Positions 1 through 42,187 of a stretch of DNA of 64,000 bases are shown piece by piece (position 1 is the first letter of the stretch; the number at the start of each line of letters is the position of its first letter). The notes beneath the pieces were generated by a model. That model was given only the letters and a program-made list of their open reading frames with translations, was not told the origin of the DNA and did not search any database. This stretch comes from Candidatus Azotimanducaceae bacterium (GTDB taxonomy: Bacteria > Pseudomonadota > Gammaproteobacteria > Pseudomonadales > Azotimanducaceae). The stretch is taken from positions 1,649,149 through 1,713,148 of the forward strand of contig OZ242170.1 of the NCBI GenBank assembly GCA_965205545.1, given 5' to 3'. Both the position numbers and the translations under genes were made by a program.

Positions 1-636
1 AGATGAGGTGTCTGCGAGCCACTCGCCTTGGTAGCGGGGGAACATGTAGTCGCCCATGTCGTTCATTATCTGAACACCCTTTACGACAGGATAGATTTGC
101 AAGACTTCTTGGACCTTCTGCACAACCGTTGGCCAAGCAGCTCCCCACATGCTGCCGGATGTATCAATCACGAAAATCACATACTCGCTGTCCACAGTGA
201 TTCCACCAATGACATCGTTCTTTCGAACATAATCAATTCCCAAAAGACGTATCATCTCATCGGTTAGGGATTGCTTTGCTCGAGCGAGGTCTGCCTGTTG
301 CTCTTCCTGCTCCTCCGTGATTCTTCTGACTGTATCGTATTTGCTTGTTAGTTCGACAAGCTCCTCTTGCAATTCCAATTGACGCAGCAGCTCTTGCTCA
401 ATGTTGTCCTCAGTCTCGATTTTTGTACGTTCAAGGATTGCCGTTTCTCCGAGAATCTTCTCTATCTCCTCTTGACGCTTGGCTATCTGCGCCGCGAGAT
501 CTTCGAGTGAGATCTCCAATATGGTTGGCAGACTGATCTTGGTGATCATCAGCAACATGATGATTGCACCGAACCCGCAGCATATGACATCCAAGAAGGC
601 AAGGCTAAGCTCATTCCCTTCACGTCGTCGCCTCAT
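1..636 (-). CDS. ExbD/TolR-like membrane anchor + coiled coil + VWA domain protein (paralog of the next gene; C-terminus lies beyond the window edge)
   Basis: Absent from the ORF track because it runs off the window. I translated the minus strand from the ATG at 636-634: MRRRREGNELSLAFLDVICCGFGAIIMLLMITK, then a long E/Q/L-rich heptad-like stretch, then VIFVIDTSGSMWG (DxSxS MIDAS). The ATG overlaps the TGA of the upstream gene (ATGA at 633-636). Confidence 0.75.
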   Translation of the reverse strand, partial: MRRRREGNELSLAFLDVICCGFGAIIMLLMITKISLPTILEISLEDLAAQIAKRQEEIEKILGETAILERTKIETEDNIEQELLRQLELQEELVELTSKYDTVRRITEEQEEQQADLARAKQSLTDEMIRLLGIDYVRKNDVIGGITVDSEYVIFVIDTSGSMWGAAWPTVVQKVQEVLQIYPVVKGVQIMNDMGDYMFPRYQGEWLADTSS

Positions 637-1721
637 GGCCAGTCCTCCGACGGGGCCATGAACGTTCCGGAGGTAATGTGTGCCAAATTCCAATACGACC
701 CCGCCGCGAACGGATCGCCCTCAAGAGGCAACATGATGACGTTGATGGGGATTCCAGCGGGTAGCGACTCGACCGAACGCCTGAACATGGCTAAGCGCTG
801 GCGTCCGTCCACCACCGTGCGCCGGGAAGTTCGGTTTTCCAGGGTGGGGAGACCGTCTGTTATCAGGAAAACGTTGTCAGGAACTGGCTTCATCTCGGAT
901 ATGGTTACGAACAACTGTTGCAAGTTGGTTCCTTCTCTTGGAGGCTTGTTGCGCAATGAGTCAATTGCTTCGTGGACCGCATCCGTATCCGTCGCGGGAT
1001 GCCACTCTCCCAGCCCGACCACAAATTCAGTTTCGTTGTTGTACCTGACTATTTGAAAACTGCTGTCAACCGGAATGTTGGCGACCAACCACTCTGTAGC
1101 GTCTACTGCCTGTTTCCACTTCGGTGCATCCAACTGCCGGGGGACTGGCATGTGCATTCGTCTTCTTATGTTCACAAGCTCTGCATCCAGCATGCTTGCG
1201 GAACTGTCGAGCGCAACCAAAATGTACCGCCCGCCCATGTAAAGCCCCGTCAAGTATTGTCTATCGCCCTCTCCTTCGATGGCAATGACGTCCGGCCCAC
1301 GTTCGGTTTCCTCACGCTCCTTGAGGAGTTCTACTTCCTCCTCTTGAGTTTCTATCTCCGAACGCTCTCTCTCAATCGTCTCGCTTTGGTCGAGTGCGAT
1401 CTTCTCGATTTCTTCGAGCGCTTCTTCTTTTTCCTCCACTTCTTCCTGCAACGAATCAACTCGTTCGCGTGCTTCCGCAATGCGGAGCGCTAATTGTGCG
1501 ACTATTTCACGCAATTCAGCGAGGTCTTGCTCGCCTTCCCGCGCTCGATAATCAAGCAGTCGCGACTCCGCTAATTGATCGCGGTTGATCGTGTCAATTT
1601 CTTCCTCGGTTTGATGATTGATAATCAGAAATATCATCACCACGGCGCCAAATCCGCCCGCCATGACATCCAGAAACGACAACGTAAATACATTGAGTGG
1701 ACGTTTCCGCGATCTAGCCAT
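633..1721 (-). CDS. ExbD/TolR-like membrane anchor + coiled coil + VWA domain protein
   Basis: 362 aa. The N-terminus RKRPLNVFTLSFLDVMAGGFGAVVMIFLII matches the ExbD/TolR pattern (basic residues, then (I/L)N(I/V)..L..DV(M/L) with an Asp in the helix). About 110 aa of E-rich coiled coil follow. The VWA domain has YILVALDSSASM (DxSxS) and FLITDGLPT. Confidence 0.8.
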   Translation of the reverse strand: MARSRKRPLNVFTLSFLDVMAGGFGAVVMIFLIINHQTEEEIDTINRDQLAESRLLDYRAREGEQDLAELREIVAQLALRIAEARERVDSLQEEVEEKEEALEEIEKIALDQSETIERERSEIETQEEEVELLKEREETERGPDVIAIEGEGDRQYLTGLYMGGRYILVALDSSASMLDAELVNIRRRMHMPVPRQLDAPKWKQAVDATEWLVANIPVDSSFQIVRYNNETEFVVGLGEWHPATDTDAVHEAIDSLRNKPPREGTNLQQLFVTISEMKPVPDNVFLITDGLPTLENRTSRRTVVDGRQRLAMFRRSVESLPAGIPINVIMLPLEGDPFAAGSYWNLAHITSGTFMAPSEDWP

Positions 1722-2985
1722 CTTCGCTAACCGCTATAAGCTGATACGCAATGGAGCCTGCCACAATGGAGTCGCCAACTTTGGTTGCAGCCTCTCCGTG
1801 GATACGTTCACCGTTAAGCAACACGGTTGCGTGACTATCGGGAACGACAACGAACCCGCGCGCGTTCTTCTTGATGGTAAAGTCGGTCGTGCCATCGCGT
1901 TGGTTAGTAGCGGCAAATTCACTACCAATTGCATGGGCAATGGATTGCCTCAATACATGAGTGGCATCGGGAAGCGCATGCGCTTCGTGATGAATTTGAG
2001 AGCGTGCCTTGTTTACATGAGGAATTTCAACGTGAAGAGATCTGGCATTCGAGTCACCCTTGGAAGCCCCAATTCTCGAGGCTGCCATTGCTATGTCACT
2101 GACCGTGCAAGGAAAGCACTTGCTGCCCTGGTCGTTGAACGCCTCCACGACTCCTGGCAATGCGGCGGAGTGTTCGGAGAGCAACACTGGGCAACCGTGA
2201 TCTATGAGAGAGGACACTTCTGCCACTCGCGCATTTGCTGCCGCCACTAGCTCGGAGCGCGAAATCTCAGCTTGCCTTGAGTTTCTCTGGTGCTCCACGT
2301 GCACAACATGGATATCTTCGTCCAGCGCCACGAATTCCAACATCTGATCGAAGACCTGCTGTTCGGTTCCAGCAAATTTTCTAGGATCGAAACGAGCAGT
2401 ATCAAGCAGCTTGTCCGCAGCTATCTTTATCCAGGAATTTATCAACGGTAGCAACCCGAACCGCGGAGCAATGCTCGTACCTCCCTTAGATACAACTTTG
2501 CCGACCTGAAGTTGAGTCACAACACTTCGGTGAAGCCCTATTTCTACAAATGCACACTTCTCGCCAACGTCGATGCTGGCTCCTGCTGCGACTCCTCGGT
2601 CGACAAAATCCAAAACATTGAGCTCCGCCTGCACCGCAATGCCGTAAAACAACGCCAACTGACCATTCGACATGTCGCTGGGAACCGCTACCCACAATTG
2701 GTCCTCGCTTGAAAGCCCGCTTTGCTCCTTCATGGCAAGGAGTTGTTGGAAGACTAGGTCGGCCTGGGTCTCAACGGCAAAGCCTGGTGGGTGGACCGCG
2801 CTCTGATCCATTCGCTGCCAGTACTGACTCTGCTCGCGATCCGGATAAAGCTTGATTTGTGCTAGAGCTTCGCTACCAAGGACCAAGGACTTTGGTTCGA
2901 CAAGCGCTATCCCAGGTTCGTCGTATCGGACCTCGCCGTCTTTGCTCAGCCTAATACTGGCATCTGCAACATCAAGAATCCACAT
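1714..2985 (-). CDS. Cytoplasmic actin/Hsp70-fold-like protein with C-terminal FHA-like domain
   Basis: The ORF extends to 3036, but the ATG at 2985-2983 lies 1 nt after the TAG of the MotA-like gene (2989-2987), and MWILDVADAS is a sensible N-terminus. ILDVADAS, VAVPSDMSNGQLALFYGIAVQAELNVLDFVDRGVAA and FVEIGLHRS resemble degenerate Hsp70/actin phosphate-1, connect and phosphate-2 segments. The C-terminus FVVVPDSHATVLLNGERI...VGDSIVAGSIAYQL is FHA-like. No TM segment or signal peptide is present. Confidence 0.6.
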   Translation of the reverse strand: MWILDVADASIRLSKDGEVRYDEPGIALVEPKSLVLGSEALAQIKLYPDREQSQYWQRMDQSAVHPPGFAVETQADLVFQQLLAMKEQSGLSSEDQLWVAVPSDMSNGQLALFYGIAVQAELNVLDFVDRGVAAGASIDVGEKCAFVEIGLHRSVVTQLQVGKVVSKGGTSIAPRFGLLPLINSWIKIAADKLLDTARFDPRKFAGTEQQVFDQMLEFVALDEDIHVVHVEHQRNSRQAEISRSELVAAANARVAEVSSLIDHGCPVLLSEHSAALPGVVEAFNDQGSKCFPCTVSDIAMAASRIGASKGDSNARSLHVEIPHVNKARSQIHHEAHALPDATHVLRQSIAHAIGSEFAATNQRDGTTDFTIKKNARGFVVVPDSHATVLLNGERIHGEAATKVGDSIVAGSIAYQLIAVSEDG

Positions 2986-2986
2986 G

Positions 2987-3784
2987 CTAACGAACCTGCA
3001 AGTGCCTAAGCAAGTTTTCGTCGCACCACGCTTCAACGGCGATTACCGTCTCCTCTTGATAGCGCTGCAGCTGATATACGAAAAACATAATCACAATGCT
3101 GATGACCAAAGCCACAAAGGTCGAATTGAACGCCACGCCAAGACTTTCCGTTACCCCTGCAATGTCGCCTTGAACTGCCTCGTATGCGTGCCCTAGCGCT
3201 TCTCCAATACCGCGAACTGTACCGATGAAGCCAATGGACGGTATGGCCCAGGCAATATAGCGAATCATTGCCAATTCGCTATCCAACCTGTCTGCTTCAG
3301 CCTCGCAAACGGAGCGAACGACTTCAGAAACGTTTTGCACTGCCTGGGTGGACTCAAACCTTTGAAGTGCAGTCAAAACGGTTCGCGATATAAGCAAATC
3401 TTGCGCCTTGGCAGGAAGAGATTGAATGGGTCGCATGTAGCGACGAGCATCCTCCGGCAATACACTGACCCCATCGCCCACCTGCAGGACGTTGCGATCA
3501 AGCAATCGGCGTTCAGCCATGGCCGACATCGCTTTAGTCCCCATGATTGCAAAGGCCCAAAACATCAAAATGAAGCAAGTTTCCTGCTCGTAGTCTCGAA
3601 GCGTTACGAATAGCGACCGCTCAGGCGTGAAGGTCTCGTCGTTTTGAAGACGTTCGGCGCGATCGGCAAGAATTTCGTTAGCGGTTGGGCGAATTACGCT
3701 CGCGTACACCAAATGCACAACTAGTATGGAGATTAGCAACGCAATTAGTTGGGTTAGTAGCGACGATGTAAAGCGTCCTTTCAT
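2987..3784 (-). CDS. MotA/TolQ/ExbB family proton-channel protein
   Basis: 265 aa with an N-terminal TM and the family signature region IAWAIPSIGFIGTVRGIGEALG...GVTESLGVAFNSTFVALVISIVIMFF (compare the IAP.LGLLGTV.G ... AL.TT..GL consensus). Confidence 0.85.
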   Translation of the reverse strand: MKGRFTSSLLTQLIALLISILVVHLVYASVIRPTANEILADRAERLQNDETFTPERSLFVTLRDYEQETCFILMFWAFAIMGTKAMSAMAERRLLDRNVLQVGDGVSVLPEDARRYMRPIQSLPAKAQDLLISRTVLTALQRFESTQAVQNVSEVVRSVCEAEADRLDSELAMIRYIAWAIPSIGFIGTVRGIGEALGHAYEAVQGDIAGVTESLGVAFNSTFVALVISIVIMFFVYQLQRYQEETVIAVEAWCDENLLRHLQVR

Positions 3785-3793
3785 AGTTAATTC

Positions 3794-4189
3794 CTATATA
3801 TCCACTGGAAAAGGCACGGCAATATCTTCAGATATCTCCTCCGTTGGTATAAAGATTTCTGCAATACCGTCCTCGTCGGATCCTTCTTCTTCAGATTGAG
3901 CTGATTCTTCATTTGACGAATCCATTACAGATTGGTTCTCTGCGTCAGTTTGCGCCGGATTAAGCCCCTCAGGTGCTGGCTTAGCGTTAGCATCGTTGTC
4001 CGTTTCCTTATTACCTGAAGAAGAGTCTGCCTCCTCCGAAGACACAGTCTCCTCGGAATTCGACGTCTCCGCTTGATCGGTCTGAGAGAGAACCACCGCT
4101 GAATTCAGCAAGAGGAATACAAGTGGCAGATTCACCAGCGCAAACCTAGAGAGACTGAAACTCTTGCGCTTTCTGCTTCTATTCTGCAT
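3794..4189 (-). CDS. Small secreted acidic low-complexity protein
   Basis: The start is taken at the internal ATG 4189, just after the stop of the upstream gene (4179-4181). It has a signal-like segment FALVNLPLVFLLLNSAVVLSQ, then a D/E/S-rich region, and ends in EIFIPTEEISEDIAVPFPVDI. Confidence 0.6.
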   Translation of the reverse strand: MQNRSRKRKSFSLSRFALVNLPLVFLLLNSAVVLSQTDQAETSNSEETVSSEEADSSSGNKETDNDANAKPAPEGLNPAQTDAENQSVMDSSNEESAQSEEEGSDEDGIAEIFIPTEEISEDIAVPFPVDI

Positions 4190-6230
4190 AGCGAGCAATG
4201 CGGAAACCAACGTCTTGCCTTCCATCTATCCCATAGTCTCGAAACGACAATCTCACATCCGTAATCGTTCCATTCAAATAACTTGAACCACGAATCACGT
4301 GATATTCGCCTTCGTTCGGTCCCAATGCGTTCACAACGGTGTTCGCCTCGGGCACGGTGTAGAAATCATGCATCCATTCGGCGACGTTTCCGCCTATGTC
4401 AAACAAACCCTTAGAGTTTGGTGCAAATGTCCCAACGGGCGCTGTTACTGTGTAGTTGTCGTTGTAATCGAACAGAATTCTGCTGACTACATGCTGTGCG
4501 GCCCGATCAGCATAGTTTCCGTGTCGTGTTGGAGGCGGGAGCTTTTCACCCCAAGGAAAGTGCAACAACTCTGGCTCTCCCTCAACGTGACGCGCCGCCC
4601 AGGACCATTCTGATTCCGATGGTAGGCGGTAGCCGAGCGCACTGGGGTTGAATCCGACAACTTTTGCCCCACGCAATTCGTAAAAGGGCTCTAGGCCTTC
4701 CTTTTCTGAAAGATAATTGCAATACAAGGCTGCTTCCGTCCAAGACACGTTCACAACAGGCTGTTCGTCCTCATTGAGGGATGACCCCTGATAGGTCCCA
4801 GAATCATGTCCCGGTGCAAATTGGCGGAAATGCCCATTGGTAACTTCTTGAATTCCCATGTAGAAAAGTCTGTTCTGGTTCACCGTGCGAAAGACTTCAT
4901 TCGCGCGACGGCCTGGTTGTCTTCGCGAAGCCCCCATGCGAATGGAAGTGGGCTGGAGCAACACAATTTCCTGACCATCCGGGGATGTGCGAACTTGCCG
5001 CAATGCTTCCAATCGGGCTTCCTCCAGCGTCAATAGGCGAACACGCAAATTTTGGGCTAGTCCCGGTTGAATGGTTATGTGGTTGCTGTATCCCGCGTAG
5101 CCTTCCTTGCGTAGTTCCACCGAGTGGTCCACCGCATGTAGAGCAAACGACTCGTTGCTGACGCCAAGTAGATTGCCATCCACCCACACTTCGACACCGT
5201 CTGGTTCCGTCGTTACTATCAACGTCCCCATGACTTTTTCTAGAACGAGATCTAAAGTCTCGTGTGCACCGGGATCGACACTTATGTCGCGATCCAATTG
5301 CTCATACCCAACTAGCAATACGCTCAAGGAGTGCGCCTTCTGCGGCTCGACCGTTGCTGTTAGAGGGGTAACGCCTTTGAACTCTCCGTCGATGCTTACA
5401 CTAGCTCCGGGTGGCTCTGACGTCATTGTCAGTACGCCCCCCTGCAGCTCGAGCTCAACAGGTTCTAGCTGCACGACCTGCCCAGCTTCTACATAGATGA
5501 TGTCCGTCCAATCTGCATAGCCGAATTTCCTAATCGAAATCGTATGCTCTCCGGCAAGAACCTCGACCGGGCCAGGGGTAACAAATCCTGAATCGGCACC
5601 GTCAATGTGTACAGTCGCCCCTTCTGGATCCGTCGGCATAGTGACCATTGCCCAATTTGGGCTCAATTCGACATTGATCGATTGCTCTTGGCTCATGCCC
5701 TGGATCGTTTCCTCAACGGACTTGGATATGTAGCGTGGCGCAGTAAACTCAAACACCGTATTACCTGCTGCAATATCCAATTGCAGTGGAGTCTTGCCAT
5801 TTGGCACACCATTGACAGAAACTGCAGCTCCAACGGGAACTGAAGTGATCATCACGTCGCCTGGCAAGCGGACGAGATTCAACTCGAACACTTGGTCGCC
5901 TTGGGGAGCGACCTCAATAGGTAGTGACAACTCGTGGTAACCGTCAGCTCGAGCAATTACCGTGTATTCGCCCTGACGCATGAGAAAAGTCTCCGGCGTA
6001 CGAATCACAATGCCACCAGAGACGTCTACTTGCGTATCTGCAACGTTCGGCTCAAACCTAACCGCCTTTGCGGTGAACAGAAACCACAGCACGAACCCAG
6101 CAACCACGACAACGAACAGCGTTAACACTTGCAGCCATGGAACTAGCCTGATGCGACGGGGCGGCCGTGGTGGAGTTGGCTTGAATTCCTCGGGACGAAG
6201 AACTGGAGGCGCGTCGGTGTCCATGGGCAA
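4179..6230 (-). CDS. Single-pass membrane protein with about 5 PEGA-like repeats and a C-terminal FGE-sulfatase (SUMF1/GldK-like) domain
   Basis: 683 aa. It has a Pro-rich N-terminus and the TM segment LVPWLQVLTLFVVVVAGFVLWFLFTA. Repeats of the type TSVPVGAAVSVNGVPNGKTPL, TDPEGATVHIDGADSGFVTPG, SEPPGASVSIDGEFKGVTPL and TEPDGVEVWVDGNLLGVS are present. The C-terminus carries the FGE-family hallmarks GLFDIGGNVAEWMHDFY and HVIRGSSY...GFRIAR. Confidence 0.8.
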   Translation of the reverse strand: MPMDTDAPPVLRPEEFKPTPPRPPRRIRLVPWLQVLTLFVVVVAGFVLWFLFTAKAVRFEPNVADTQVDVSGGIVIRTPETFLMRQGEYTVIARADGYHELSLPIEVAPQGDQVFELNLVRLPGDVMITSVPVGAAVSVNGVPNGKTPLQLDIAAGNTVFEFTAPRYISKSVEETIQGMSQEQSINVELSPNWAMVTMPTDPEGATVHIDGADSGFVTPGPVEVLAGEHTISIRKFGYADWTDIIYVEAGQVVQLEPVELELQGGVLTMTSEPPGASVSIDGEFKGVTPLTATVEPQKAHSLSVLLVGYEQLDRDISVDPGAHETLDLVLEKVMGTLIVTTEPDGVEVWVDGNLLGVSNESFALHAVDHSVELRKEGYAGYSNHITIQPGLAQNLRVRLLTLEEARLEALRQVRTSPDGQEIVLLQPTSIRMGASRRQPGRRANEVFRTVNQNRLFYMGIQEVTNGHFRQFAPGHDSGTYQGSSLNEDEQPVVNVSWTEAALYCNYLSEKEGLEPFYELRGAKVVGFNPSALGYRLPSESEWSWAARHVEGEPELLHFPWGEKLPPPTRHGNYADRAAQHVVSRILFDYNDNYTVTAPVGTFAPNSKGLFDIGGNVAEWMHDFYTVPEANTVVNALGPNEGEYHVIRGSSYLNGTITDVRLSFRDYGIDGRQDVGFRIARYAE

Positions 6231-6236
6231 TGCCGA

Positions 6237-7799
6237 CTAAATCTGCTCTTCGCAGACTATGCGGACGGGTTGCATGCCTCGTCCCACGTTGATTGATTTT
6301 CGGACATCCACCCAACCATCCCGGCTACCAACAAGCTGATAGCGACCGGGGCGCAATTGGATTTCGCGTCTTTCAAACAGTCCGAGCTTGCCGCGGGTGC
6401 TCAATGTCACCTCAGTTGCATTGTCCGACACCAAGACAACTGTGAGGTGTTGAGAAGCAAAGTCAATCAAGTTAGCAAACTCGGTCAAAGATCGATCAAA
6501 ATCTGTACTGTGACCACGAAGTTTCTCGGCTCGTTCCAATAACTGAACAGATTTGCTCAGTTCGTCGTCAGCCGACAGTACACCAGGGTCACCGAGCACG
6601 ACATGCATTTGCTCATTGACCGTGAGGATTTCGAACACACGCTCCTTTCCCTTGATCGCGAAGTCCAATTTGGCGTCAATCTCTAGAACCTCGTCGTAGG
6701 TGGCAAGTGCGGCCTCGAGCTCAAGCAGATCCTCCTCTTCTTGGGCACGTGTTCGCAGTTCCTCAATTCGAAGGGCGACTCTTGCCAAAGCGCTCTGCTG
6801 CAATCCGGTTGTCGCAGCCACGTTACCTGGCTGTCTTTGCAACACTTCGTTGAACATCCGATCCGCCTCGTCGAAGTCATCCTGATTGAGCGCTTGGTGT
6901 CCCTGCGAAAGTAGCTCATTTAGCTCCTCTTCAGCCTTTGACTGATTGATTCGCGAACGTCGGTCGTCGACACCGGGCGTTAGAGAATCCAGATCCTCAA
7001 CCTGGGACAGGTACGCAAGCGCATCGTCCCACTGACCTCTCAAGACCGCACGGTCACTTTCGCGTAACAACTCATTGATCTTGGGTAGTCGGGCGACGCG
7101 CTGCAATCCAATTTGTGCTGATTGAACGAGTGGCTTGATGGCAGAAGCGTTTTGAAACGCGACTTGAGCTGCCTCTGTGTCTCGATCGTCCAACGCTGCA
7201 ACTCCCGCTTCCATCCATTCGTCGAACTCGGCGTTTACCGTCTCCAACAGTTGGCCTAATTCTTCTAAGGCGGAATTGAACTTGCTCAGTGCTGCATCGT
7301 ACTCTCCCTGCCCAAACAGTATGTCGCCTTCATTCGCCTTGGCCAAAATCGCGTTATAAAGATCCCTATGCGATTCCGAACCATATTGGTTTCTTTCAAA
7401 CGTATCCTGTAACGCGCTAAATTCCTCGAGATCTGACTCGGCCTGCGCTCGAGCGCGGTCCAACTGGGACTCCAAAAACGGCGCAATGCTTTGGTCGTTA
7501 GCGTTTGTCTCGTTCCGGTCGCTCGGTCGCTCGCTTGTACCGTCCCTTTCGTTGCTACCCGTCCACACCCGCGCTATGTCTTGCTGTTGAATCCACAAGA
7601 ACATGGCGGCAGCACAGACTACGACAAAGATTCCAGCGATAAACTGCTTCTGCCGTGAAGTTACACGAAACTGTGAACGGCGCCGAGTCGGCTCGTTTGA
7701 AGCAAGTTGGGGAACTACCGGTTGTATTTGAACCGGCTTCGCTGCACTATCCGTTGTCTTGGAAGAATTCTTCAGTGACGTTCTCCCCAGACTCATCAA
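6237..7799 (-). CDS. Membrane-anchored TPR/coiled-coil scaffold protein with a C-terminal beta-rich domain
   Basis: 520 aa with the TM segment FIAGIFVVVCAAAMFLWIQ and long helical-repeat regions (GEYDAALSKFNSALEEL, GQWDDALAYLSQV, DDFDEADRMFNEVLQRQPGN). The C-terminus LRPGRYQLVGSRDGWVDVRKSINV is PEGA-like. Its 5' end overlaps the 3' end of the upstream lipoprotein gene by about 50 nt, and there is no alternative in-frame start downstream of that overlap. Confidence 0.7.
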   Translation of the reverse strand: MMSLGRTSLKNSSKTTDSAAKPVQIQPVVPQLASNEPTRRRSQFRVTSRQKQFIAGIFVVVCAAAMFLWIQQQDIARVWTGSNERDGTSERPSDRNETNANDQSIAPFLESQLDRARAQAESDLEEFSALQDTFERNQYGSESHRDLYNAILAKANEGDILFGQGEYDAALSKFNSALEELGQLLETVNAEFDEWMEAGVAALDDRDTEAAQVAFQNASAIKPLVQSAQIGLQRVARLPKINELLRESDRAVLRGQWDDALAYLSQVEDLDSLTPGVDDRRSRINQSKAEEELNELLSQGHQALNQDDFDEADRMFNEVLQRQPGNVAATTGLQQSALARVALRIEELRTRAQEEEDLLELEAALATYDEVLEIDAKLDFAIKGKERVFEILTVNEQMHVVLGDPGVLSADDELSKSVQLLERAEKLRGHSTDFDRSLTEFANLIDFASQHLTVVLVSDNATEVTLSTRGKLGLFERREIQLRPGRYQLVGSRDGWVDVRKSINVGRGMQPVRIVCEEQI

Positions 7800-9015
7800 T
7801 GCCTGCTTCCGACTCTAGATCTCCTTCAACGTCCTCGTCTGGAAGACCTAGGTATTCAAAGTAAAGTTGCTTGAGTGTTTCGCGTGCTTTAAGAAACTGT
7901 TCGGAGGCAGTTCCTTCTAGTCTAATCGTGGAATTCTCCAACTCGATCGTGTGTGGATCGATCTCCTTGGCCGCGATAACTCCCAACTCTTGAAGCGTCG
8001 AGGCATGGATTTTCACGTTTGCGCGGTTTTGAATTCCGCCGATTATCTCTGTAGCTCCGCCGATTACCGACGCGTAACCGGCATATTCAGTAATCGTGCT
8101 GCTACTTCGTTGCGCAACGGCTCCACCTAGGACCATCATCGTCCCTGCTATTAATCGACTCCGAGACTTGTTGCGTTCCTCTCGAAGATCAATTGCCTCG
8201 GTGTACGTGCCTTCTCGCCAGTTTTGGTACGGAATTCGCATGTCCCACGCAAAGCGGGAAAAGTATTCTGCAAGTGTGTCTATTACAAGAAACTCGCGTT
8301 CTCGGACTTCACGAACTCGCCTCATGTTTGGATCATTCGACGCAGGCAAACGCACCACCTCGTATTCCTCATCCTTAGTCTCGGCGACATAGTCAGCGAA
8401 GGCATCGGGATTTATGTCGCGGGCGTAGCGCATTAGCGTAGTCAGTCGAATGTCTTCAATTTCCTCGATCGAAAGCTCTTCGACATATTCGAGCATCTCA
8501 TCTGCAATCAATCGGTAGGTTGTTTGAAACGGTTCAACATTTGAGGCAATTTCGAGAGCGTAGTGATACTTGCTAGCCAACGTTTCGTAGACTCGCTCGA
8601 ACCAGATCTCGCCTCGAGAGTCCTGCACACGCACTGCCAAAACTTGTCGCTCACCGTCAGAATGCAGAATGCCGCCGGTTACTAACACATCCACAGCATA
8701 GGTGGCTTGAGGCAGCACCCTAACGGCTCCCCAATTCCCCGTGGATTGCAACAAGTCCGTCGCGTAGCTGGAAATGTAGTTTGCTTCAGCTCTTCGTATC
8801 TCGGGAGTGATATTCCGAGTAACTAGATCGTCGTAGGCTTCGGGAATATTGGAGTCGAATACTACGACTCCCACGTCAAGCAAAAGGTCATCTGGCAGCG
8901 CGCGGTCCGAGGTTCTGGGTGCTTGGGTGTCAACAACACGCAGAGTCGTGGACGAGCACCCAAAAAGAAACAAGCAAAGTGAGAGCCCGATGTAGAGAAC
9001 ACTCGCTTTCTTCAT
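7747..9015 (-). CDS. Lipoprotein of unknown function
   Basis: The start at ATG 9015 overlaps the TGA of the upstream gene (ATGA at 9012-9015). It has the lipoprotein signal MKKASVLYIGLSLCLFLFGC (lipobox LFGC), a Gly-rich hydrophobic segment IAGTMMVLGGAVA...VIGGATEIIGG, and an acidic C-terminus. Confidence 0.7.
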   Translation of the reverse strand: MKKASVLYIGLSLCLFLFGCSSTTLRVVDTQAPRTSDRALPDDLLLDVGVVVFDSNIPEAYDDLVTRNITPEIRRAEANYISSYATDLLQSTGNWGAVRVLPQATYAVDVLVTGGILHSDGERQVLAVRVQDSRGEIWFERVYETLASKYHYALEIASNVEPFQTTYRLIADEMLEYVEELSIEEIEDIRLTTLMRYARDINPDAFADYVAETKDEEYEVVRLPASNDPNMRRVREVREREFLVIDTLAEYFSRFAWDMRIPYQNWREGTYTEAIDLREERNKSRSRLIAGTMMVLGGAVAQRSSSTITEYAGYASVIGGATEIIGGIQNRANVKIHASTLQELGVIAAKEIDPHTIELENSTIRLEGTASEQFLKARETLKQLYFEYLGLPDEDVEGDLESEAGIDESGENVTEEFFQDNG

Positions 9016-10097
9016 TTGAGACCCTCGATGTATGTCTCGTAGTCTTCCCAAAGTTTCTCTTTCAGCTCTGGATCCTCTTCTGCCATGGCGGCCTCGCGCA
9101 ATTGTCGGGCGTACACTTCCTTGTCTCGCGCATCAGGCGTGTCCGCTACTGTATGCATAGTCGGCGGAAGATTGGGTGTGCCATCTCCTTTGTTTGTTGC
9201 TTCGCTGACGGCTGAGTTCTCTTCGCCAACGCCCGAGTCGGAGGATTCGCCTTGAGACTCCGATGTTGTCTCCTCGGCCTGCATATCTGCGGGACCGCCT
9301 GCGGCAGCAGCGCGGTCATTGGCGCGAGCCAAATCATCGCTACGTTCCTCCATGATTTCGCCGTCCAAGACACCTAGTACGCGTCTCAATTCCTCATCCT
9401 CAGGATCGAGTCCGCGATTATCACCCAACTCCTGATCAAACTCTCCTGGCAGTTCTCCAATGCCGCTCTGTTCGTCTTGCGTCGCGAGCCCACCCGGTTC
9501 AGGCAACTGATTGCTAATCTCCCAACCGCCGCTGGCTTCATCGTCGCTAGTTCCGGGGATTGGTGAACTTTCAGGCAATCCGCCCTCGCCAGCCTCATCG
9601 CCTTCACTAGCCTCATCGCCTTCGGGTTCGCCAGTACCCATAGGTCCGCCGGTTTCCAACACACCTGATTCCGTTCGATCCGTTCCGTCTTGAGGAGTAC
9701 CTTCGCCCTCACCCTCTTCTTGATCTTGATCAGCTACACCGGTTGACGGCATTCCGGGCAAATCTGCATCCGTTGGCCCGTCAGTGCTCGTCGGCAGCGA
9801 TGGAAGAGATGGCATGCCAGTCGACGAATCGGTACCGGGCAAGGTAGTGCTTGGTGGAATTGGCAACGGGGGACTGCTTGTAGGTGATGGAATCGGCGAA
9901 GGGATGGATGGTAGACCCGATCCCTGTCCCTGTCCGGTTGATGTGCCACCTGATGACGGTGCACCTGATGTCGATGGCGGCATCGAGCTTTGTGACGGAC
10001 TTGGCAATTCGATTGTTGGAAAGTCTCGAGGCGTACTGGATAGACAGCCACTTAGCAGTGCGATTGCGACGCCAACTGCTAGCAATCGACTTGCCAT
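9012..10097 (-). CDS. Lipoprotein with P/S/T-rich and D/E/G-rich disordered regions
   Basis: The ORF extends to 10187, but MASRLLAVGVAIALLSGC from ATG 10097 is a classical lipoprotein signal with lipobox LSGC. It is followed by PSIPSPIPSPTSSPPLPIPPS and EGDEASEGDEAGEGG low-complexity tracts, and a short helical C-terminus EDPELKEKLWEDYETYIEGLK. Confidence 0.65.
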   Translation of the reverse strand: MASRLLAVGVAIALLSGCLSSTPRDFPTIELPSPSQSSMPPSTSGAPSSGGTSTGQGQGSGLPSIPSPIPSPTSSPPLPIPPSTTLPGTDSSTGMPSLPSLPTSTDGPTDADLPGMPSTGVADQDQEEGEGEGTPQDGTDRTESGVLETGGPMGTGEPEGDEASEGDEAGEGGLPESSPIPGTSDDEASGGWEISNQLPEPGGLATQDEQSGIGELPGEFDQELGDNRGLDPEDEELRRVLGVLDGEIMEERSDDLARANDRAAAAGGPADMQAEETTSESQGESSDSGVGEENSAVSEATNKGDGTPNLPPTMHTVADTPDARDKEVYARQLREAAMAEEDPELKEKLWEDYETYIEGLK

Positions 10098-10287
10098 CAA
10101 AAACGGCTTGCTGCTGCAATGCTCTTTCGCCGCACTGCCTAGCACACTCAACCCTGATTTATTTGTGTTGAGAGAAACGATGTCCATTTCAGCCTGTTCC
10201 CGCCATCAAGGCTTGTTTTCTCCTCTACTACAGAGACACTGTCTCGGCAACAAGGTTCACTTTAGTGCAATGCATAGTGTCAATAAC

Positions 10288-11589
10288 CTACTCTTCGGCA
10301 CTTGAGTCCGAAAAGAAGATGTATTCATGCGTCAATATTACTCCTTCCTGCGGCTTCCTCTCTCCACTTCGAACGACTGGGCGGTACCTAGCCTCTCGCA
10401 TAGACTCCAAAAATAGCTCAACAAATCGATCGTCAGGCACAACAGATTCGACGGTTACTTCCTCGACCAATCCCTCTGCGTCGACGTTGAACATCAATTC
10501 AATTCTGCCCTCTAAAGGCTCCACTAGACTCGCTTGAGGATGCGCCTGCGGACTTCTTGACAGAGGGTAGTACAGCGCCACCGGTTGGCTGAATTCCTTG
10601 CTTAAAAACTCTGCACTAAGGTTGCTGGAGAACATCTCCCATATGTCCCTATACACAATGGTGGCTAGTTCAATCTTGTCGAACAGCAAGTACCAGTCCG
10701 CCAAGTCCAATTTGGCGTAAGCTAGGGATTCAGACGAGCTTTCTGCTCGCTCCTGCTCGATTTCCACCAGCTCTTTGAGAGCTTCCTCTCCAGGTGCAAA
10801 CCGGTTAACTGTGGCTTTGTAAGTTGGAACGCCCTCATCAGTCGATGCCGACTGATCAATGAACTCCTCGCTCACAACGAGCTCTCCCGGAGTCGTGAAT
10901 CGCTCATGGCGATAGCTCATAGCCAGTCCTTTCAATGCTCGAATGTTAAAGGGATCTGTCCGCTCAAGATTGGTCTCTGTAATCTTCAGTGCATCGTCAA
11001 ACATTCCTCGTGCTGCAAATACGTTGCGCACTTCCAAATACCACTCCGCCAATTCGAGCAAACCTGGCAGAAGATCAACCGAGTCCTCGCCATATGTCCG
11101 CACGTTTACGTTGTATGCATACTCATGGCGGTCCGTTGCGCGTCCAATTTGGCCGAGCTCGTGGTAGGTGTCAGCTTCCCGGTATACGACGTCAAGCTGC
11201 TCGACGGAATGCAGGCCATGTGCTAGTCGCGAAACATGGCGTGCACGATCATAGGTGTCAAGGGCCTCCACATACTCGCCGTTCTTGCGCAATCCGTCGC
11301 CCAGCAAAAGAAGAGGCTCGACAAGTATCGGATCGAAACGCGACCCTTCTTCTTCCAATTGATCAATGAAGTTACTTGCAAGTTCTATGGCTTCGCCGAT
11401 TTCATTGGAAGCCAAGCGAGTTCGAATGGCCTCCAAGGGGTCGCTGGGTGTGCTGGGCATATCCTGCTGACCAACATCGTTGCCACCATTCTCATCACCC
11501 ATGCATGCAATTCCAACGAGCAGCACAGCCAAGGCAACAAAAGAGCTCGCCGTCCGTTGGACAGTCAAGCCAATGTGTTCAATCTTCAT
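10288..11589 (-). CDS. TPR-repeat protein with C-terminal TonB_C-like domain (first gene of the operon)
   Basis: The ORF extends to 11673 and the start is uncertain; I chose M29 (MKIEHIGLTVQRTASSFVALAVLLVGIAC, a signal or anchor). It has TPR-like helices (NGEYVEALDTYDRARHV, GQIGRATDRHEYAYNV). The C-terminal roughly 80 aa, GRIELMFNVDAEGLVEEVTVESVVPDDRFVELFLESMREARYRP, resembles the TonB C-terminal fold. Confidence 0.65.
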   Translation of the reverse strand: MKIEHIGLTVQRTASSFVALAVLLVGIACMGDENGGNDVGQQDMPSTPSDPLEAIRTRLASNEIGEAIELASNFIDQLEEEGSRFDPILVEPLLLLGDGLRKNGEYVEALDTYDRARHVSRLAHGLHSVEQLDVVYREADTYHELGQIGRATDRHEYAYNVNVRTYGEDSVDLLPGLLELAEWYLEVRNVFAARGMFDDALKITETNLERTDPFNIRALKGLAMSYRHERFTTPGELVVSEEFIDQSASTDEGVPTYKATVNRFAPGEEALKELVEIEQERAESSSESLAYAKLDLADWYLLFDKIELATIVYRDIWEMFSSNLSAEFLSKEFSQPVALYYPLSRSPQAHPQASLVEPLEGRIELMFNVDAEGLVEEVTVESVVPDDRFVELFLESMREARYRPVVRSGERKPQEGVILTHEYIFFSDSSAEE

Positions 11590-11752
11590 TAGTTTGAAAT
11601 TCACAACCCGTTTGTTAGCTTTCAACCGCATCCCATTCATGAGATCCAAACATCGATATAAACTAACTCTCATTCGTAGCTAAGTGGTTCTCTCAGTTGA
11701 CTCGTTCGATAGTGTGTTTGACCCGCAAATGCTTGGAAATGTCTTCTAGTCC

Positions 11753-11980
11753 GTGAAATACGACCACAAATTGGACACATGCGGTCTCACATGCCCCGAA
11801 CCACTCATGATGGTTCGCAATAAAGTGCGTGAGATGCGGTCGGGCGAACGCCTACTTGTCCTTGCAACAGATCCTTCAACACATCGAGATTTCTTGAACT
11901 TCTGCCGGTTCCTAGGCCACAGCCTTGAACATGCCGAAACAAGCAAAGAAATCCTCGAATTCGTCATATGTAAAGGTTAA
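11753..11980 (+). CDS. tusA: Sulfurtransferase TusA family
   Basis: 75 aa with a GTG start. LDTCGLTCPEPLMMVRNKV contains the CPxP active-site motif, and LLVLATDPSTHRDF is also conserved. Confidence 0.85.
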   Translation: MKYDHKLDTCGLTCPEPLMMVRNKVREMRSGERLLVLATDPSTHRDFLNFCRFLGHSLEHAETSKEILEFVICKG

Positions 11981-11988
11981 CTGAATTG

Positions 11989-12447
11989 ATGCAACAAGTG
12001 CACCATTACTTCGCATATGGCAGCAATATGAACGAAAATCGAGCACGTGAACGCAAACTTCACTTCACGTCGGTTAGTTGCGCACAATTGGACGGCTTTG
12101 TATTGAAGTTCAACAAGCGCTCACGCAAAACTCCAATCTCGGGACGAGCAAACGTCATGCAGCAAACTGGTAGTGTTGTATACGGTGTGCTCTACCATCT
12201 GTGCACTCCGACCAACATTGTGACAATGGATCCCTACGAACATGCGCCAGTCGACTACCGTCGAATAATCGTCGAGATCAGCGCACCTGAATTCAGCGGC
12301 CCGAGCTGGTTGTACGTTGCAAATCCAAGTGTTGTGGACAACTCGCTTCTTCCCTCACGTTCCTATCTCAAGCACTTGCTTGCGGGACGCAGCTTTTTGC
12401 CGAAGAGCTACCTTGAGGAACTTGCCCGCGTGGCTTGTCTGGATTGA
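11989..12447 (+). CDS. Gamma-glutamylcyclotransferase (AIG2/GGCT-like) family protein
   Basis: The N-terminal YFAYGSNM motif is typical of the GGCT fold. The ATG at 11989 follows the TTG at 11986 listed in the track. Confidence 0.7.
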   Translation: MQQVHHYFAYGSNMNENRARERKLHFTSVSCAQLDGFVLKFNKRSRKTPISGRANVMQQTGSVVYGVLYHLCTPTNIVTMDPYEHAPVDYRRIIVEISAPEFSGPSWLYVANPSVVDNSLLPSRSYLKHLLAGRSFLPKSYLEELARVACLD

Positions 12448-12495
12448 CGAATCAGTGTCAATTCGACGGGAATAGCTGACTCGACGTGGCCAGAC

Positions 12496-13572
12496 ATGAC
12501 CGAACGCTGTGATGTTGTCGTAATTGGTGCCGGAATAGTTGGTCTAGCCGTCGGTAGAGCTTTGGCCATGCGAGGCCGAGAAGTTCTTGTACTTGAACAA
12601 CACGACATGATCGGTACCCAGACTTCAAGCAGAAACTCTGAAGTGATCCATGCGGGAATCTACTACCCCACGGATTCGTTGAAAGCGAAGCTTTGCGTCG
12701 AAGGAAAGCACTTGTTGTATAGGTATTGCGAAGAGCACAAGGTGCCCTATAAGCGCATTGGCAAAATCATTGTCGCAACTTCCATAGGCCAACTCGCCAC
12801 ACTGAAGCAATACCAAACCCAGTCGATCGCAAACGGTGCTGGAGAGCTTCCTTGGCTCGAACAACGAGACATAAGGACCCGAGAGCCTGCCGTTAGGTGT
12901 CTTGCCGGAGTTTTTTCACCCTCAACGGGGATCATTGACAGCCATGCCTACATGTTGAGTCTTGAAGGAGATCTGGAGGCTTGCGGAGGCATGGTCGCCT
13001 TCAACTCGAAGGTCGGATCCATTATTCGCAATGGCGAAACAATAGTCTCTTGTGCCGGAATGAGACTCTCTCCTAGGCTCTTAGTAAACGCGGCGGGGCT
13101 TGCGGCACCACAAATCTCGCATCAACTGGGAGGAAGGCACCAAGCCCATTTCGCCAAAGGCCACTACTACACGCTTTCTGGAGCCTCGCCATTCAATCAC
13201 CTCATCTACCCTATCGCAGAAAGTGGGGGGCTAGGTGTGCACGTAACCATCGATATCGGCGGGCAAGCCCGCTTTGGACCCGATGTGGAGTGGATTGACG
13301 AGGTCAGTTACGACTTCTCATACAGCAACCGACAGCTGTTCATCGAAACCGTGCGGAGCTACTACCCAGAATTGGATGAATCGAAGCTTCATGCGGGTTA
13401 TACAGGAATAAGGCCAAAGCTTGTTCCAAAAGGCGATCCACCCGCAGATTTCGTCGTTAACGGACCAAAGGAGACGGGAATTCCCGGCTATGTTGAATTG
13501 CTGGGAATTGAGTCGCCAGGGCTCACTGCTTCGCTAGCCATCGCGAACCTAGTTGTTGAGCTTGCTTCCTAG
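12496..13572 (+). CDS. FAD-dependent oxidoreductase (L-2-hydroxyglutarate oxidase-like)
   Basis: The N-terminal Rossmann motif DVVVIGAGIVGLAVGRAL is followed by SSRNSEVIHAGIYYP, typical of the LhgO/COG0579 group. Confidence 0.75.
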   Translation: MTERCDVVVIGAGIVGLAVGRALAMRGREVLVLEQHDMIGTQTSSRNSEVIHAGIYYPTDSLKAKLCVEGKHLLYRYCEEHKVPYKRIGKIIVATSIGQLATLKQYQTQSIANGAGELPWLEQRDIRTREPAVRCLAGVFSPSTGIIDSHAYMLSLEGDLEACGGMVAFNSKVGSIIRNGETIVSCAGMRLSPRLLVNAAGLAAPQISHQLGGRHQAHFAKGHYYTLSGASPFNHLIYPIAESGGLGVHVTIDIGGQARFGPDVEWIDEVSYDFSYSNRQLFIETVRSYYPELDESKLHAGYTGIRPKLVPKGDPPADFVVNGPKETGIPGYVELLGIESPGLTASLAIANLVVELAS

Positions 13573-13725
13573 AATAAATTGGCAGTGGGACCATTGCAAT
13601 TTGACGCGATCACTGCCTGCGCACTCAATTGGTTGTAGTGCTCCCCCGGGTAGCCCTCTCACGGTCTACAATAAATCAACTTTTGCGTCTTCAAATGACA
13701 TTGCTAACTTAGGCTAGGTCCGACG

Positions 13726-14133
13726 ATGGGAAACTCACGAAAATCAGATGAAGAGTGGCGTTCTAAACTAACGGATCACGAATACCGCATTTTGCGGGAA
13801 TCCGCCACCGAACGTGCATTTACGGGAGAGTATTGGGACACTAAGACACCTGGTACATATCAATGCCGAGCCTGCGGACAACCATTGTTTGACTCGGAAA
13901 CAAAGTATGACTCCGGTTGCGGCTGGCCAAGCTTCTACGAGCCAATCAAGCAAGAAGCTGTGGAGACTCAAGAGGACCGATCTATGTTCATGGTGCGAAC
14001 GGAGGTCCTGTGTTCTGCTTGCGATTCTCATTTGGGGCACGTCTTTCCTGATGGTCCCCATCCAACTGGACTGCGTTATTGCATGAACTCCGCTTCACTG
14101 CGCCTAGATGAAGACGAAGGTACCGACGACTGA
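13726..14133 (+). CDS. msrB: Peptide-methionine (R)-S-oxide reductase
   Basis: It has two CxxC pairs ([21 protein letters not shown]) and the catalytic region GLRYCMNS. Confidence 0.93.
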
Positions 14134-38521: not shown

Positions 38522-38602
38522 TTGGCAGCGACGGCACCATTCCGCGCAAGGCTACGGCAAGAGATCCAACCAAGGATTGCTTAAGATTGCCAATCCGAAT
38601 TC

Positions 38603-42112: not shown

Positions 42113-42187
42113 CAGTCCCTTACGCAATACCAGTGGCACGAAAATTGCATTAAATGTCAGTGCAATAGCCTCGTGGAGTTCTAGGCA

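Follow-up and report, generated by a model that had tools for sequence, protein, structure and literature searches.

The gene at 4179..6230 (minus strand) of the 64-kb window, i.e., the whole stretch of DNA analysed, encodes a PEGA-FGE protein that we believe is probably a non-catalytic "pseudo-FGE" subunit, structural or ligand-binding, of a conserved trans-envelope machine. It is a bitopic inner-membrane protein composed of a short tail, one transmembrane (TM) helix, a stalk of five PEGA modules, and a head with an FGE/C-type-lectin-like fold. The TolQ-like protein and the vWA pair encoded in the same cassette were already predicted (PMC12204202), while PEGA-FGE, the FHA protein, the lipoprotein, and the small protein are new here as partners of the motor. 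The database names "formylglycine-generating enzyme" and "nonheme iron enzyme" are misleading for PEGA-FGE and are corrected here.

Proton-driven 5:2 motors (MotAB, ExbBD, TolQR, GldLM, AglRQS, and ZorAB) are the means by which bacteria deliver energy beyond the inner membrane, and each newly understood output module of these motors has revealed new envelope biology. For the TolQ-like/paired-vWA motor, which was recognised in 2025, a conserved partner set is now defined, with the proposed PEGA-FGE pillar at its centre. An FGE fold without catalysis would thus have been co-opted by a motor-driven envelope machine a second time, independently, in PEGA-FGE.

Domain architecture of PEGA-FGE

The open reading frame encodes 683 aa from a TTG codon, but the probable start is an ATG at 6224, giving 681 aa; the database copy (P0001) is also 681 aa long, with its ATG two codons after the TTG. 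In the 683-aa numbering, the protein consists of a cytoplasmic tail (1-30), a TM helix (31-54), five PEGA-type modules (55-398), a linker helix (402-411), and the pseudo-FGE domain (420-683). The Pro-rich tail and the single TM helix (6069..6230, minus strand) carry a conserved I-x-P-x-x-F-x-P and a conserved LWFxFTAKSVRF, respectively. The sequence-only reading had described a Pro-rich N-terminus followed by one TM segment, which is borne out by eight prolines among the first 28 residues and by a single hydrophobic segment (about residues 30-54) with RPPRRIR directly before it.

The periplasmic stalk (5037..6068, minus strand) is built of PEGA-type beta-sandwich modules. Pfam PEGA (PF08308) matched with an E-value of 9.6e-52 (173 bits against a gathering cutoff of 20.8) in four stretches, while the AlphaFold2 model (mean pLDDT 83.6) contains a TM helix (30-51) and then five beta-sandwiches (53-115, 122-186, 191-252, 263-327, and 332-396), followed by the linker helix and the FGE fold (419-681). 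The "about five PEGA repeats" counted earlier are therefore real, and comprise four canonical modules and one divergent N-terminal module.

The FGE-sulfatase-fold domain (4182..4973, minus strand) was matched by Pfam FGE-sulfatase (PF03781) with an E-value of 3.3e-37 (129 bits against a cutoff of 23.3) at residues 420-680 and over almost the full profile (positions 3-255 of 255), and the blocks GNVAEWMHD, IRGSSY, and GFRIAR, from which this fold had been recognised, are present in the sequence. In addition, the domain has a family-specific basic loop (MGASRRQPGRRANE) and an invariant motif, RGSS..G(T)xTDxRLSFRDYG. The majority of the invariant columns among 81 orthologues are inside it, a sign of selection on the head.

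A longer variant of PEGA-FGE (~800 aa) has the tail replaced by a weakly FHA-like N-terminal domain (sub-threshold, E about 0.02-0.1). This variant, which has the domain placed before the TM helix and stalk, resembles the FHA-TM-periplasmic scaffolds GltG of Myxococcus and YscD of the T3SS.

Loss of the FGE catalytic cysteines

A check for the catalytic Cys pair of FGE, which had been proposed together with the sequence-only reading, showed that the pair is absent: the protein has a single Cys, C504, with none before it, which is at neither catalytic position, and C336 of human FGE aligns to N654. Across the PEGA-FGE family, the C336-equivalent site is N, H, or K, the second catalytic site (C341 of human FGE) is, by sequence pattern, an invariant Asp, and the only Cys conserved in the alignment is C502. 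The PROSITE sulfatase signature (C/S-x-P-x-R) was found neither in ORFs of ≥100 aa of the window nor in those of 80 related loci (1.6 Mb with the window), which confirms the earlier remark that there is no sulfatase in the operon and extends it to orthologous loci. The same reading had held that a structural role would be contradicted by an intact Cys pair with a sulfatase nearby, or by a lack of linkage to the MotA-like gene, and neither of these was found.

Both the Pfam FGE-sulfatase match, which is well over threshold, and the JGI automatic annotation ([quoted passage not shown]) would suit a genuine formylglycine-generating enzyme that serves sulfatases encoded elsewhere in the genome. 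Because the Cys pair is absent from the protein, as it is from the family, we have practically no doubt that this explanation is refuted; moreover, a sulfatase was not found near the gene in any of the 81 sequences (the window and 80 loci). The copper-dependent FGEs (human SUMF1, Streptomyces, and Thermomonospora) have the same fold as PEGA-FGE (target-normalised TM-score 0.58-0.65, ~23% identity) and share GNxxEW and RGGS-type motifs with it, and the residues that we take to be the ligands of the two structural Ca sites of FGE are apparently kept in the PEGA-FGE alignment. However, PEGA-FGE differs from these enzymes in the replacement of both catalytic Cys, in the lack of a nearby sulfatase, and in the membrane anchor and PEGA stalk to which the domain is fused.

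In Foldseek, TvpA (Treponema denticola variable protein 1) matched the structure best (target-normalised TM-score 0.72), followed by PvdO (0.71). Neither has FGE activity, and the fold is used in them for binding or another role; pyoverdine genes are absent here. A DGR variable protein, as suggested by TvpA being the top match, was considered and rejected: no direct repeat of ≥40 nt that could serve as template or variable repeat was present in 1-14000 of the window, and the C-terminal region, far from hypervariable, shows the highest conservation in the family.

The loss of the FGE cysteines may be compatible with a different catalytic activity, which speaks against a non-catalytic PEGA-FGE. 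It could be an enzyme with other chemistry, as proposed for PvdO or the C-terminal domains of EgtB/OvoA, that acts on a periplasmic peptide or a small molecule, e.g., the small secreted protein described below. NCBI names the relatives of PEGA-FGE "SUMF1/EgtB/PvdO family nonheme iron enzyme", PvdO ranks second among the structural matches, the FGE domain is far better conserved than the PEGA stalk and has many invariant polar residues, and the x-P-S/T-x core of the small secreted protein resembles the sulfatase C-x-P-S-R motif. On the other hand, not only is there no Cys pair, but the copper-ligand-equivalent site also varies among N, H, and K, and no redox or cofactor genes were found in the cassette by Pfam and NCBIfam scans. 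The iron ligands of EgtB sit outside its FGE-like domain, which also counts against this explanation, and we judge it to be improbable.

Comparison with GldK/PorK and GldJ

The sequence-only reading saw in PEGA-FGE an echo of GldJ and GldK of the T9SS. The likeness is that in GldK/PorK and GldJ, too, the FGE-sulfatase fold lacks the catalytic cysteines, and that these proteins are periplasmic parts of a machine driven by a 5:2 motor, although the motor of the present cassette is a predicted one. GldK (TIGR03525) was indeed the best NCBIfam match of PEGA-FGE (E 1e-23), and a PDB profile search matched PorK (E 1e-14), as might be expected if PEGA-FGE shared true homology and function with GldK/PorK or GldJ and formed a motor-driven T9SS-like ring beneath the outer membrane. 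However, the GldK score was 84.3 bits against a cutoff of 350, those of GldJ (TIGR03524/TIGR03530) were 30.6 and 35.5 bits against cutoffs of 458 and 383, and human FGE outscored PorK in the PDB profile search (72 versus 56 bits). In the structural comparison that had been proposed, PorK (9myj_B; E 8e-7) was not the closest match and ranked only 18th in Foldseek, behind TvpA, PvdO, CarF, and the FGEs (E 1e-10 to 3e-8). The FGE domain is at least as close to FGE, PvdO, and TvpA as to PorK/GldK. GldK/PorK and GldJ are outer-membrane lipoproteins, whereas PEGA-FGE has no lipobox and is anchored by an inner-membrane TM helix below a five-PEGA stalk; GldL/M/N or other T9SS genes were not matched by Pfam and NCBIfam scans of nine neighbouring proteins; and the protein occurs in Gammaproteobacteria and Acidobacteriota rather than in Bacteroidota. 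Membership of PEGA-FGE in the GldK/PorK/GldJ group is therefore already largely refuted, we think it very unlikely to be the functional equivalent of these proteins, and the echo noted earlier is reduced to an analogy at the level of the fold.

The conserved cassette and its predicted motor

The gene order of the cassette is lipoprotein, TPR protein, PEGA-FGE, small secreted protein, TolQ/ExbB-like protein, FHA protein, and two vWA proteins, all on the minus strand in the window. A survey of the co-occurrence of PEGA-FGE with a MotA/ExbB-like gene, which had been suggested as a check, showed strongly conserved linkage: the MotA-like gene was present in 73 of 80 species-level loci, as was the FHA gene, together with vWA1 in 72, vWA2 in 71, and the lipoprotein gene in 71. 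The most constant neighbour was the gene of the TPR/coiled-coil protein (77/80). The same cassette was found in all five more distant loci (L081-L085), some of them from Acidobacteriota, which were fetched with Pfam-annotated gene tables in addition to the 80. Four genomes have the lipoprotein/TPR/PEGA-FGE trio without the motor module within 10 kb, indicating that the trio and motor halves are separable. Gammaproteobacteria from the sea, from sponges, and from soil have the conserved partner set in at least ~480 species-level genomes, and it is also found in Acidobacteriota, which makes the function of the cassette directly testable, e.g., in cultured Steroidobacter, Halioxenophilus, or Litorirhabdus.

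The TolQ/ExbB/MotA-family membrane protein (2987..3784, minus strand; 265 aa), presumed to form the pentameric motor ring, was matched by Pfam MotA_ExbB (E 4e-16) and has TolQ-like Thr motifs. The vWA protein 1 (633..1721, minus strand) has an ExbD/TolR-like transpore helix with an invariant FLD Asp, a coiled coil, and a vWA domain whose DxSxS MIDAS motif is intact. Its paralogue, vWA protein 2 (1..636, minus strand), starts with an ATG at 636 and continues past the window start; it shares the FLD helix and has DTSGS as its MIDAS motif. The FLD of the transpore helix is invariant in 67 vWA1 and 52 vWA2 orthologues, and no ExbD/TolR match was found in the operon by Pfam and NCBIfam scans.

A motor of a TolQ-like protein and paired transpore-helix vWA proteins was predicted bioinformatically in 2025, and a 5:2 motor of a TolQ-like pentamer and a vWA heterodimer was proposed for Proteobacteria with AF3 models (PMC12204202). 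Like the window, the described loci have a TolQ/ExbB-family gene and two heterologous vWA genes without tolR/exbD, and the N-terminal helices of the vWA proteins have an ExbD/TolR/MotB-type Asp (PMC12204202). The vWA pair as a motor axle, predicted in that paper, was absent from the sequence-only reading. PEGA-FGE, the FHA protein, the lipoprotein, and the small secreted protein all go unmentioned in the text and text supplements of PMC12204202, whereas here these four are as conserved as the motor genes, and the cassette is also found in Acidobacteriota. Our search of the literature on PEGA and FGE with TolQ/ExbB/MotA found no paper on the PEGA-FGE family.

The small secreted protein (3794..4225, minus strand; true start probably an ATG near 4189) has a signal peptide, an acidic middle part that varies, and a C-terminus with the conserved motif F-x-P-[ST]-E-x-[IV]-S-E-D-x-x-V-x-F-P-V-D-I, which was found in the window and in 74 of the 80 loci. 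Its conservation between PEGA-FGE and the motor gene had not been remarked on in the sequence-only reading, nor had the TPR protein and the lipoprotein as the tightest neighbours of the PEGA-FGE gene. The TPR/coiled-coil protein (6237..7799, minus strand) is bitopic and has a C-terminal PEGA-like beta domain. The conserved lipoprotein (7747..9051, minus strand) has an invariant lipobox Cys and was matched neither by Pfam nor by a profile search against PDB sequences; its AF2 model has an alpha/beta domain weakly like the TolB N-terminal domain and a long helical hairpin, with weak Foldseek matches (E ≥ 3e-3) to the TolB N-terminal domain, LptE, and BAR-like helices. Further upstream, a Pro/Ser/Thr- and acid-rich predicted lipoprotein (9012..10187, minus strand) has an LLSGC lipobox and is mostly of low complexity, and the first gene of the minus-strand cluster (10288..11673) encodes a TPR protein with a weak C-terminal TonB_C-like domain, which is present in 52 of the 80 loci.

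The FHA protein (1714..3036, minus strand; probable start M18 near 2985) is cytoplasmic, with a C-terminal FHA domain; the only signal in its N-terminal ~350 aa is a weak Hsp70/actin-like one (SSZ1, E 0.2). Such a partner raises the question of whether PEGA-FGE is a periplasmic sensor or receptor, whose head takes up a ligand from the envelope or the environment and which signals across the membrane to the FHA protein and a kinase, both of which would gate the motor. FGE-sulfatase domains occur as extracytoplasmic parts of Ser/Thr kinases, for example in P0243 (Pkinase and three FGE domains), which is among the nearest non-family relatives, and a conserved cytoplasmic motif lies ahead of the TM helix. 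The FHA-like domain of the ~800-aa variant would also fit, as would the Ser/Thr kinase domain fused N-terminally to the TPR/coiled-coil protein in one lineage (L085). Nevertheless, the cytoplasmic part has only ~28 residues in most members, a rigid five-module stalk is unusual for a sensor, and the kinase is sporadic, being found in one of the five extra loci and not in the window operon. We consider this reading less probable than not by some distance, though it deserves more credit than an enzymatic one.

The core complex of Agl-Glt of Myxococcus has small TolR-like AglQ/AglS, and its GltG is an FHA-TM-TonB_C protein (PMC3169522). Agl-Glt and the cassette both combine a TolQ-like motor, a heterologous axle pair, TPR proteins, and FHA and vWA domains. 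The two differ in the small AglQ/AglS and the TonB_C on GltG, orthology to GltD/E/C did not emerge, and we keep Agl-Glt as an analogy only. An anti-phage defence system was rejected, as a PADLOC scan of nine cassette proteins was marginal (best match ZorA on the MotA-like protein, E 7e-4).

A proposed pillar of a trans-envelope machine

How might a pseudo-FGE subunit work? Judging from homology and the AF3 models (PMC12204202), the TolQ-like pentamer and the vWA heterodimer would form a proton-driven 5:2 motor. The PEGA stalk of the pseudo-FGE subunit would then hold the FGE-fold head about level with the reach of the ~110-residue vWA coiled coils. Ig-like domains measure 3.5-4 nm per module, a value assumed for PEGA, and on this basis the stalk would be ~15-20 nm long. 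The head may bind a partner through the groove that in true FGEs takes up the extended Cys-x-Pro-x-Arg peptide, with the C-terminus of the small secreted protein (F-x-P-S/T-E...FPVDI) or the Pro/Ser-rich lipoprotein as candidate ligands, and the cytoplasmic tail may couple the pillar to the FHA protein as well as, in one lineage, to the fused Ser/Thr kinase. From this height, head binding, and tail coupling, we propose that PEGA-FGE is a static pillar, scaffold, or adaptor for the rotating vWA axle. Outer-membrane tethering, surface-polymer handling, secretion, and motility are possible roles of the machine.

Three loci have Ile or Val in place of the peptide Glu, and in these a single conserved basic residue is lost across seven cassette proteins, namely an R to Q change in the FGE-domain loop GR[R/Q]ANE, making a charge-complementary pair; in L066, by contrast, the loop has Q while the peptide Glu is kept. 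As the three loci probably belong to one clade and hence represent one event, and as the covariation is at about chance level, it is only a weak lead for a contact between head and peptide.

More speculatively, the cassette could encode an undescribed trans-envelope nanomachine, in which PEGA pillars rooted in the inner membrane and arranged as a ring or array, their pseudo-FGE heads gripping the F-x-P-S/T-E...FPVDI peptide, would be the stationary or cog partner of the rotating vWA axle, under cytoplasmic phospho-threonine (FHA/kinase) control. Such a machine would be an independently arisen proteobacterial/acidobacterial counterpart of GldLM-GldK, and we put this picture forward tentatively, as one that may well prove wrong in this full form.

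Given the TM helix of PEGA-FGE, direct contact of the pillar with the motor is no more than a possibility. TonB and TolA dock on ExbB/TolQ by an N-terminal TM helix with an SHLS/His motif, whereas that of PEGA-FGE has neither a conserved His nor SHLS, and the C-terminus is a TonB_C domain or TolA domain III in the former but an FGE fold in PEGA-FGE. The weak TonB_C match of the cassette sits on another protein, that encoded at 10288-11673.

Architecture and distribution of the PEGA-FGE protein

The PEGA-FGE open reading frame (4179-6230, minus strand) is real, and an identical database protein of 681 aa (P0001) begins two codons further in. Pfam identified a PEGA domain in four stretches (E 9.6e-52) and a full-length FGE-sulfatase domain (residues 420-680, E 3.3e-37), and the only hydrophobic segment (approximately residues 30-54) follows a tail rich in Pro and Arg. 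The structure predicted by AlphaFold2 from 81 orthologues (mean pLDDT 83.6) runs from a TM helix through five beta-sandwich modules (53-115, 122-186, 191-252, 263-327, and 332-396) and a short helix to an FGE fold (419-681). The first module is divergent, and Pfam gives there just a CarboxypepD_reg-like trace. The sequence-only reading was thus correct in describing a TM segment, about five PEGA repeats and an FGE fold.

At least 667 homologues were found at E <= 1e-10 in a protein search, and the best 120 of these are all ~680-710 aa long, with 48-100% identity and an unchanged Pfam architecture. When only the FGE domain was used in a full HMMER scan, 1157 clusters (50% identity) were obtained at E <= 1e-30. 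The top matches fall into two length classes (~680-720 aa and ~790-880 aa), both of PEGA + FGE proteins; the closest relatives after these are giant proteins with multiple FGE domains and a kinase that has three. Scanning one genome per species revealed at least 481 PEGA-FGE loci, of which 80 were kept. Their hosts are Gammaproteobacteria belonging to the Pseudomonadales (including Halieaceae, Porticoccaceae, and Azotimanducaceae), Steroidobacterales, Wenzhouxiangellaceae, and SAR86. A few carriers are cultured (Steroidobacter gossypii S1-65, Halioxenophilus sp. WMMB6, and Litorirhabdus singularis IMCC14734). Three MAG records titled "Klebsiella pneumoniae" (L028, L031, and L038) contain the cassette, with ~42% identity to the window protein; these organism labels look wrong because the gene content resembles that of environmental Gammaproteobacteria.

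PEGA-FGE is not a formylglycine-generating enzyme

The sequence-only reading preferred a structural or ligand-binding role to formylglycine generation, and this non-catalytic reading is sound; PEGA-FGE is not a formylglycine-generating enzyme. The active-site Cys pair is absent. The sole cysteine, C504, lies within a conserved "YCN" helix and is the only one conserved in the family (C502 in the 681-aa numbering). In phmmer and profile alignments, the first catalytic Cys of human FGE structures (GGSYMC) is matched by N654, a position occupied by N, H or K across the family, and the second is by pattern an invariant Asp (GTxTD vs HRSYC). The reported lack of a sulfatase gene nearby was borne out on a larger scale, as no PROSITE sulfatase signature was detected in ORFs of >=100 aa in the 64-kb window and the 80 related loci (1.6 Mb in total). 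Alignment suggests that both structural Ca sites of FGEs have kept their presumed ligand residues, with the human FGE structure as the reference.

A resemblance to GldJ and GldK, the FGE-fold lipoproteins of the T9SS, had also been proposed. The likeness, a catalytically dead FGE fold in a motor-driven envelope machine, holds at the functional and architectural level only, and membership of the GldK/GldJ family is ruled out because the scores are low, the protein is TM-anchored rather than lipidated, and the gldL, gldM, and gldN genes are missing. The NCBIfam GldK model scored 84 bits on PEGA-FGE against a cutoff of 350, and a profile search of PDB sequences gave 72 bits for human FGE vs 56 bits for PorK. 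Foldseek ranked TvpA first for the FGE part (target-normalised TM-score 0.72), followed by PvdO (0.71), CarF, and true FGEs (0.58-0.65), with PorK in 18th place. No GldL, GldM or GldN was found among the neighbour proteins by Pfam and NCBIfam scans. The TvpA match also raised a role in a DGR, which was excluded because direct repeats of >=40 nt are absent from window 1-14000 and the C-terminus is conserved.

A conserved gene neighbourhood with a predicted TolQ-like/paired-vWA motor

The 265-aa protein encoded next to the small secreted protein is TolQ/ExbB-like (Pfam MotA_ExbB, E 4e-16; best NCBIfam match, TolQ). Both vWA proteins consist, from the N- to the C-terminus, of a basic stretch, a helix with an invariant F-L-D, a coiled coil of ~110 residues, and a vWA domain whose DxSxS MIDAS motif is intact. 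There is no ExbD/TolR gene beside the TolQ-like gene and the vWA pair. The vWA proteins were proposed to rotate inside the pentamer, with no known function reported (PMC12204202). PEGA, FGE, sulfatase, and FHA are not mentioned in that paper or its text supplements, and literature searches found nothing on the PEGA-FGE family. Two points are new compared with the literature searched: the recently predicted TolQ-like/paired-vWA motor comes with a fixed set of partners that has PEGA-FGE at its centre, and the cassette reaches Acidobacteriota.

The neighbours in the window were compared with the 80 loci by tblastn, and their order is fixed. The counts are lower bounds because several loci are truncated: TPR/TonB_C-like protein (52/80), P/S-rich lipoprotein (66/80), lipoprotein (71/80), TPR protein (77/80), PEGA-FGE (80/80), MotA/ExbB-like protein (73/80), 440-aa FHA protein (73/80), vWA1 (72/80), and vWA2 (71/80). 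The linkage of PEGA-FGE to the MotA-like gene, which the sequence-only reading proposed to survey, is kept in 73/80 loci and in five of five further loci (L081-L085). These were reached via more distant relatives, include Acidobacteriota/Vicinamibacteria MAGs and one 9.3-Mb contig, and all carry the complete cassette. This synteny with 5:2-type motor genes is among the strongest to be expected. According to family HMMs, the MotA-like gene alone is missing in three loci and is placed after vWA2 in one, and four genomes have the lipoprotein/TPR/PEGA-FGE trio without motor genes within 10 kb. In these four (L015, L042, the SAR86 MAG L049, and L053), none of the genes for the small protein, the TolQ-like protein, the FHA protein, and the vWA pair lies within 10 kb downstream; the cassette therefore consists of two separable modules.

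In the window, the cassette has a gamma-glutamyltranspeptidase gene (14134-15726, minus strand) within a few kb, and in L085 such a gene (10260-11969) immediately follows vWA2; this nearness may be a coincidence.

Partner proteins and variants

The small secreted protein (3794-4225, minus strand), encoded between PEGA-FGE and the motor gene, has ~50-160 aa, with a signal peptide, a variable acidic middle, and an almost invariant C-terminus (F-x-P-[ST]-E-x-[IV]-S-E-D-x-x-V-x-F-P-V-D-I). It was found at an unchanged position in the window, in 74/80 loci and in all five extra loci, and the loci without it are exactly those without the motor module. It may bind to the groove of the pseudo-FGE domain or to the MIDAS sites of the vWA proteins. 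The lipoprotein (7747-9051, minus strand) belongs to a conserved family (>1500 homologues, all annotated "hypothetical") without Pfam domains, and a profile search against PDB sequences found no relatives of known structure. In its model (pLDDT 81.6), an alpha/beta domain with weak similarity to the N-terminal domain of TolB precedes a helical hairpin of ~160 residues, after which comes a hydrophobic segment rich in Gly.

At its C-terminus, the 440-aa protein has an FHA domain (8 of 29 orthologues match Pfam FHA, best 1e-12), recorded also in L081, L084, and L085; the sole signal in its N-terminal domain is a weak Hsp70-like match. The ~800-aa class of PEGA-FGE (L043, L045, L050, L056, L058, L062, L063, L067, L073-L075, L077, L080, and L081-L085) has an additional N-terminal cytoplasmic domain of ~140 aa, and both length classes share an I-x-P-x-x-F-x-P motif ahead of the TM helix. 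Matches of the additional domain are weak and all FHA (EssC, E 0.095; Pfam FHA/YscD, ~0.02-0.06), and a fragment of it carries the NCBI name "FHA domain-containing," which suggests a putative FHA-like/TM/PEGA/FGE architecture. In L085 (GCA_942492515.1), the TPR-protein orthologue encoded upstream of PEGA-FGE (1058-3043) carries a Ser/Thr kinase domain at its N-terminus; this fusion and the FHA domains are a hint that the cassette may be controlled through phospho-threonine.

A possible mode of action

Constraint is far stronger on the FGE head of PEGA-FGE than on the stalk, as judged from sequence conservation, and this speaks for a specific binding surface there. A stalk of five Ig-like modules would measure ~15-20 nm and coiled coils of ~110 residues, like those of the vWA proteins, would reach ~16 nm, both estimated from general structural knowledge. 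PEGA-FGE may be a static pillar or adaptor, whose stalk would extend about as far as the coiled coils of the vWA proteins. The head would grip a peptide in extended form, using the groove that corresponds to the substrate groove of true FGEs, and the best candidate ligand would be the C-terminal motif of the small secreted protein, the x-P-S/T-x core of which resembles C-x-P-S-R. In the cytoplasm, assembly or control may depend on phospho-threonine, as suggested by the FHA domains and by the kinase that occurs occasionally.

The motif Glu (P-S/T-E) is replaced by Ile or Val in three loci (L039, L051, and L055), in which 15 of 483 well-conserved columns differ in the seven cassette proteins compared. 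The only basic residue lost among those 15 is an R in the FGE loop GR[R/Q]ANE (window ~4911-4952; GRRANE to GRQANE). L066 is a counter-example, and the two changes are probably one evolutionary event in a single clade. This covariation, which is at about chance level, is a weak lead in favor of a head-peptide contact.

Elsewhere in the window, three paralogous ORFs of ~1150-1170 aa each follow one another (35060-45652, plus strand). They are practically without Pfam domains, the sole trace being a sub-threshold Golvesin_C match in the first ORF, and a TonB-dependent receptor gene (32169-34283) lies upstream of them.
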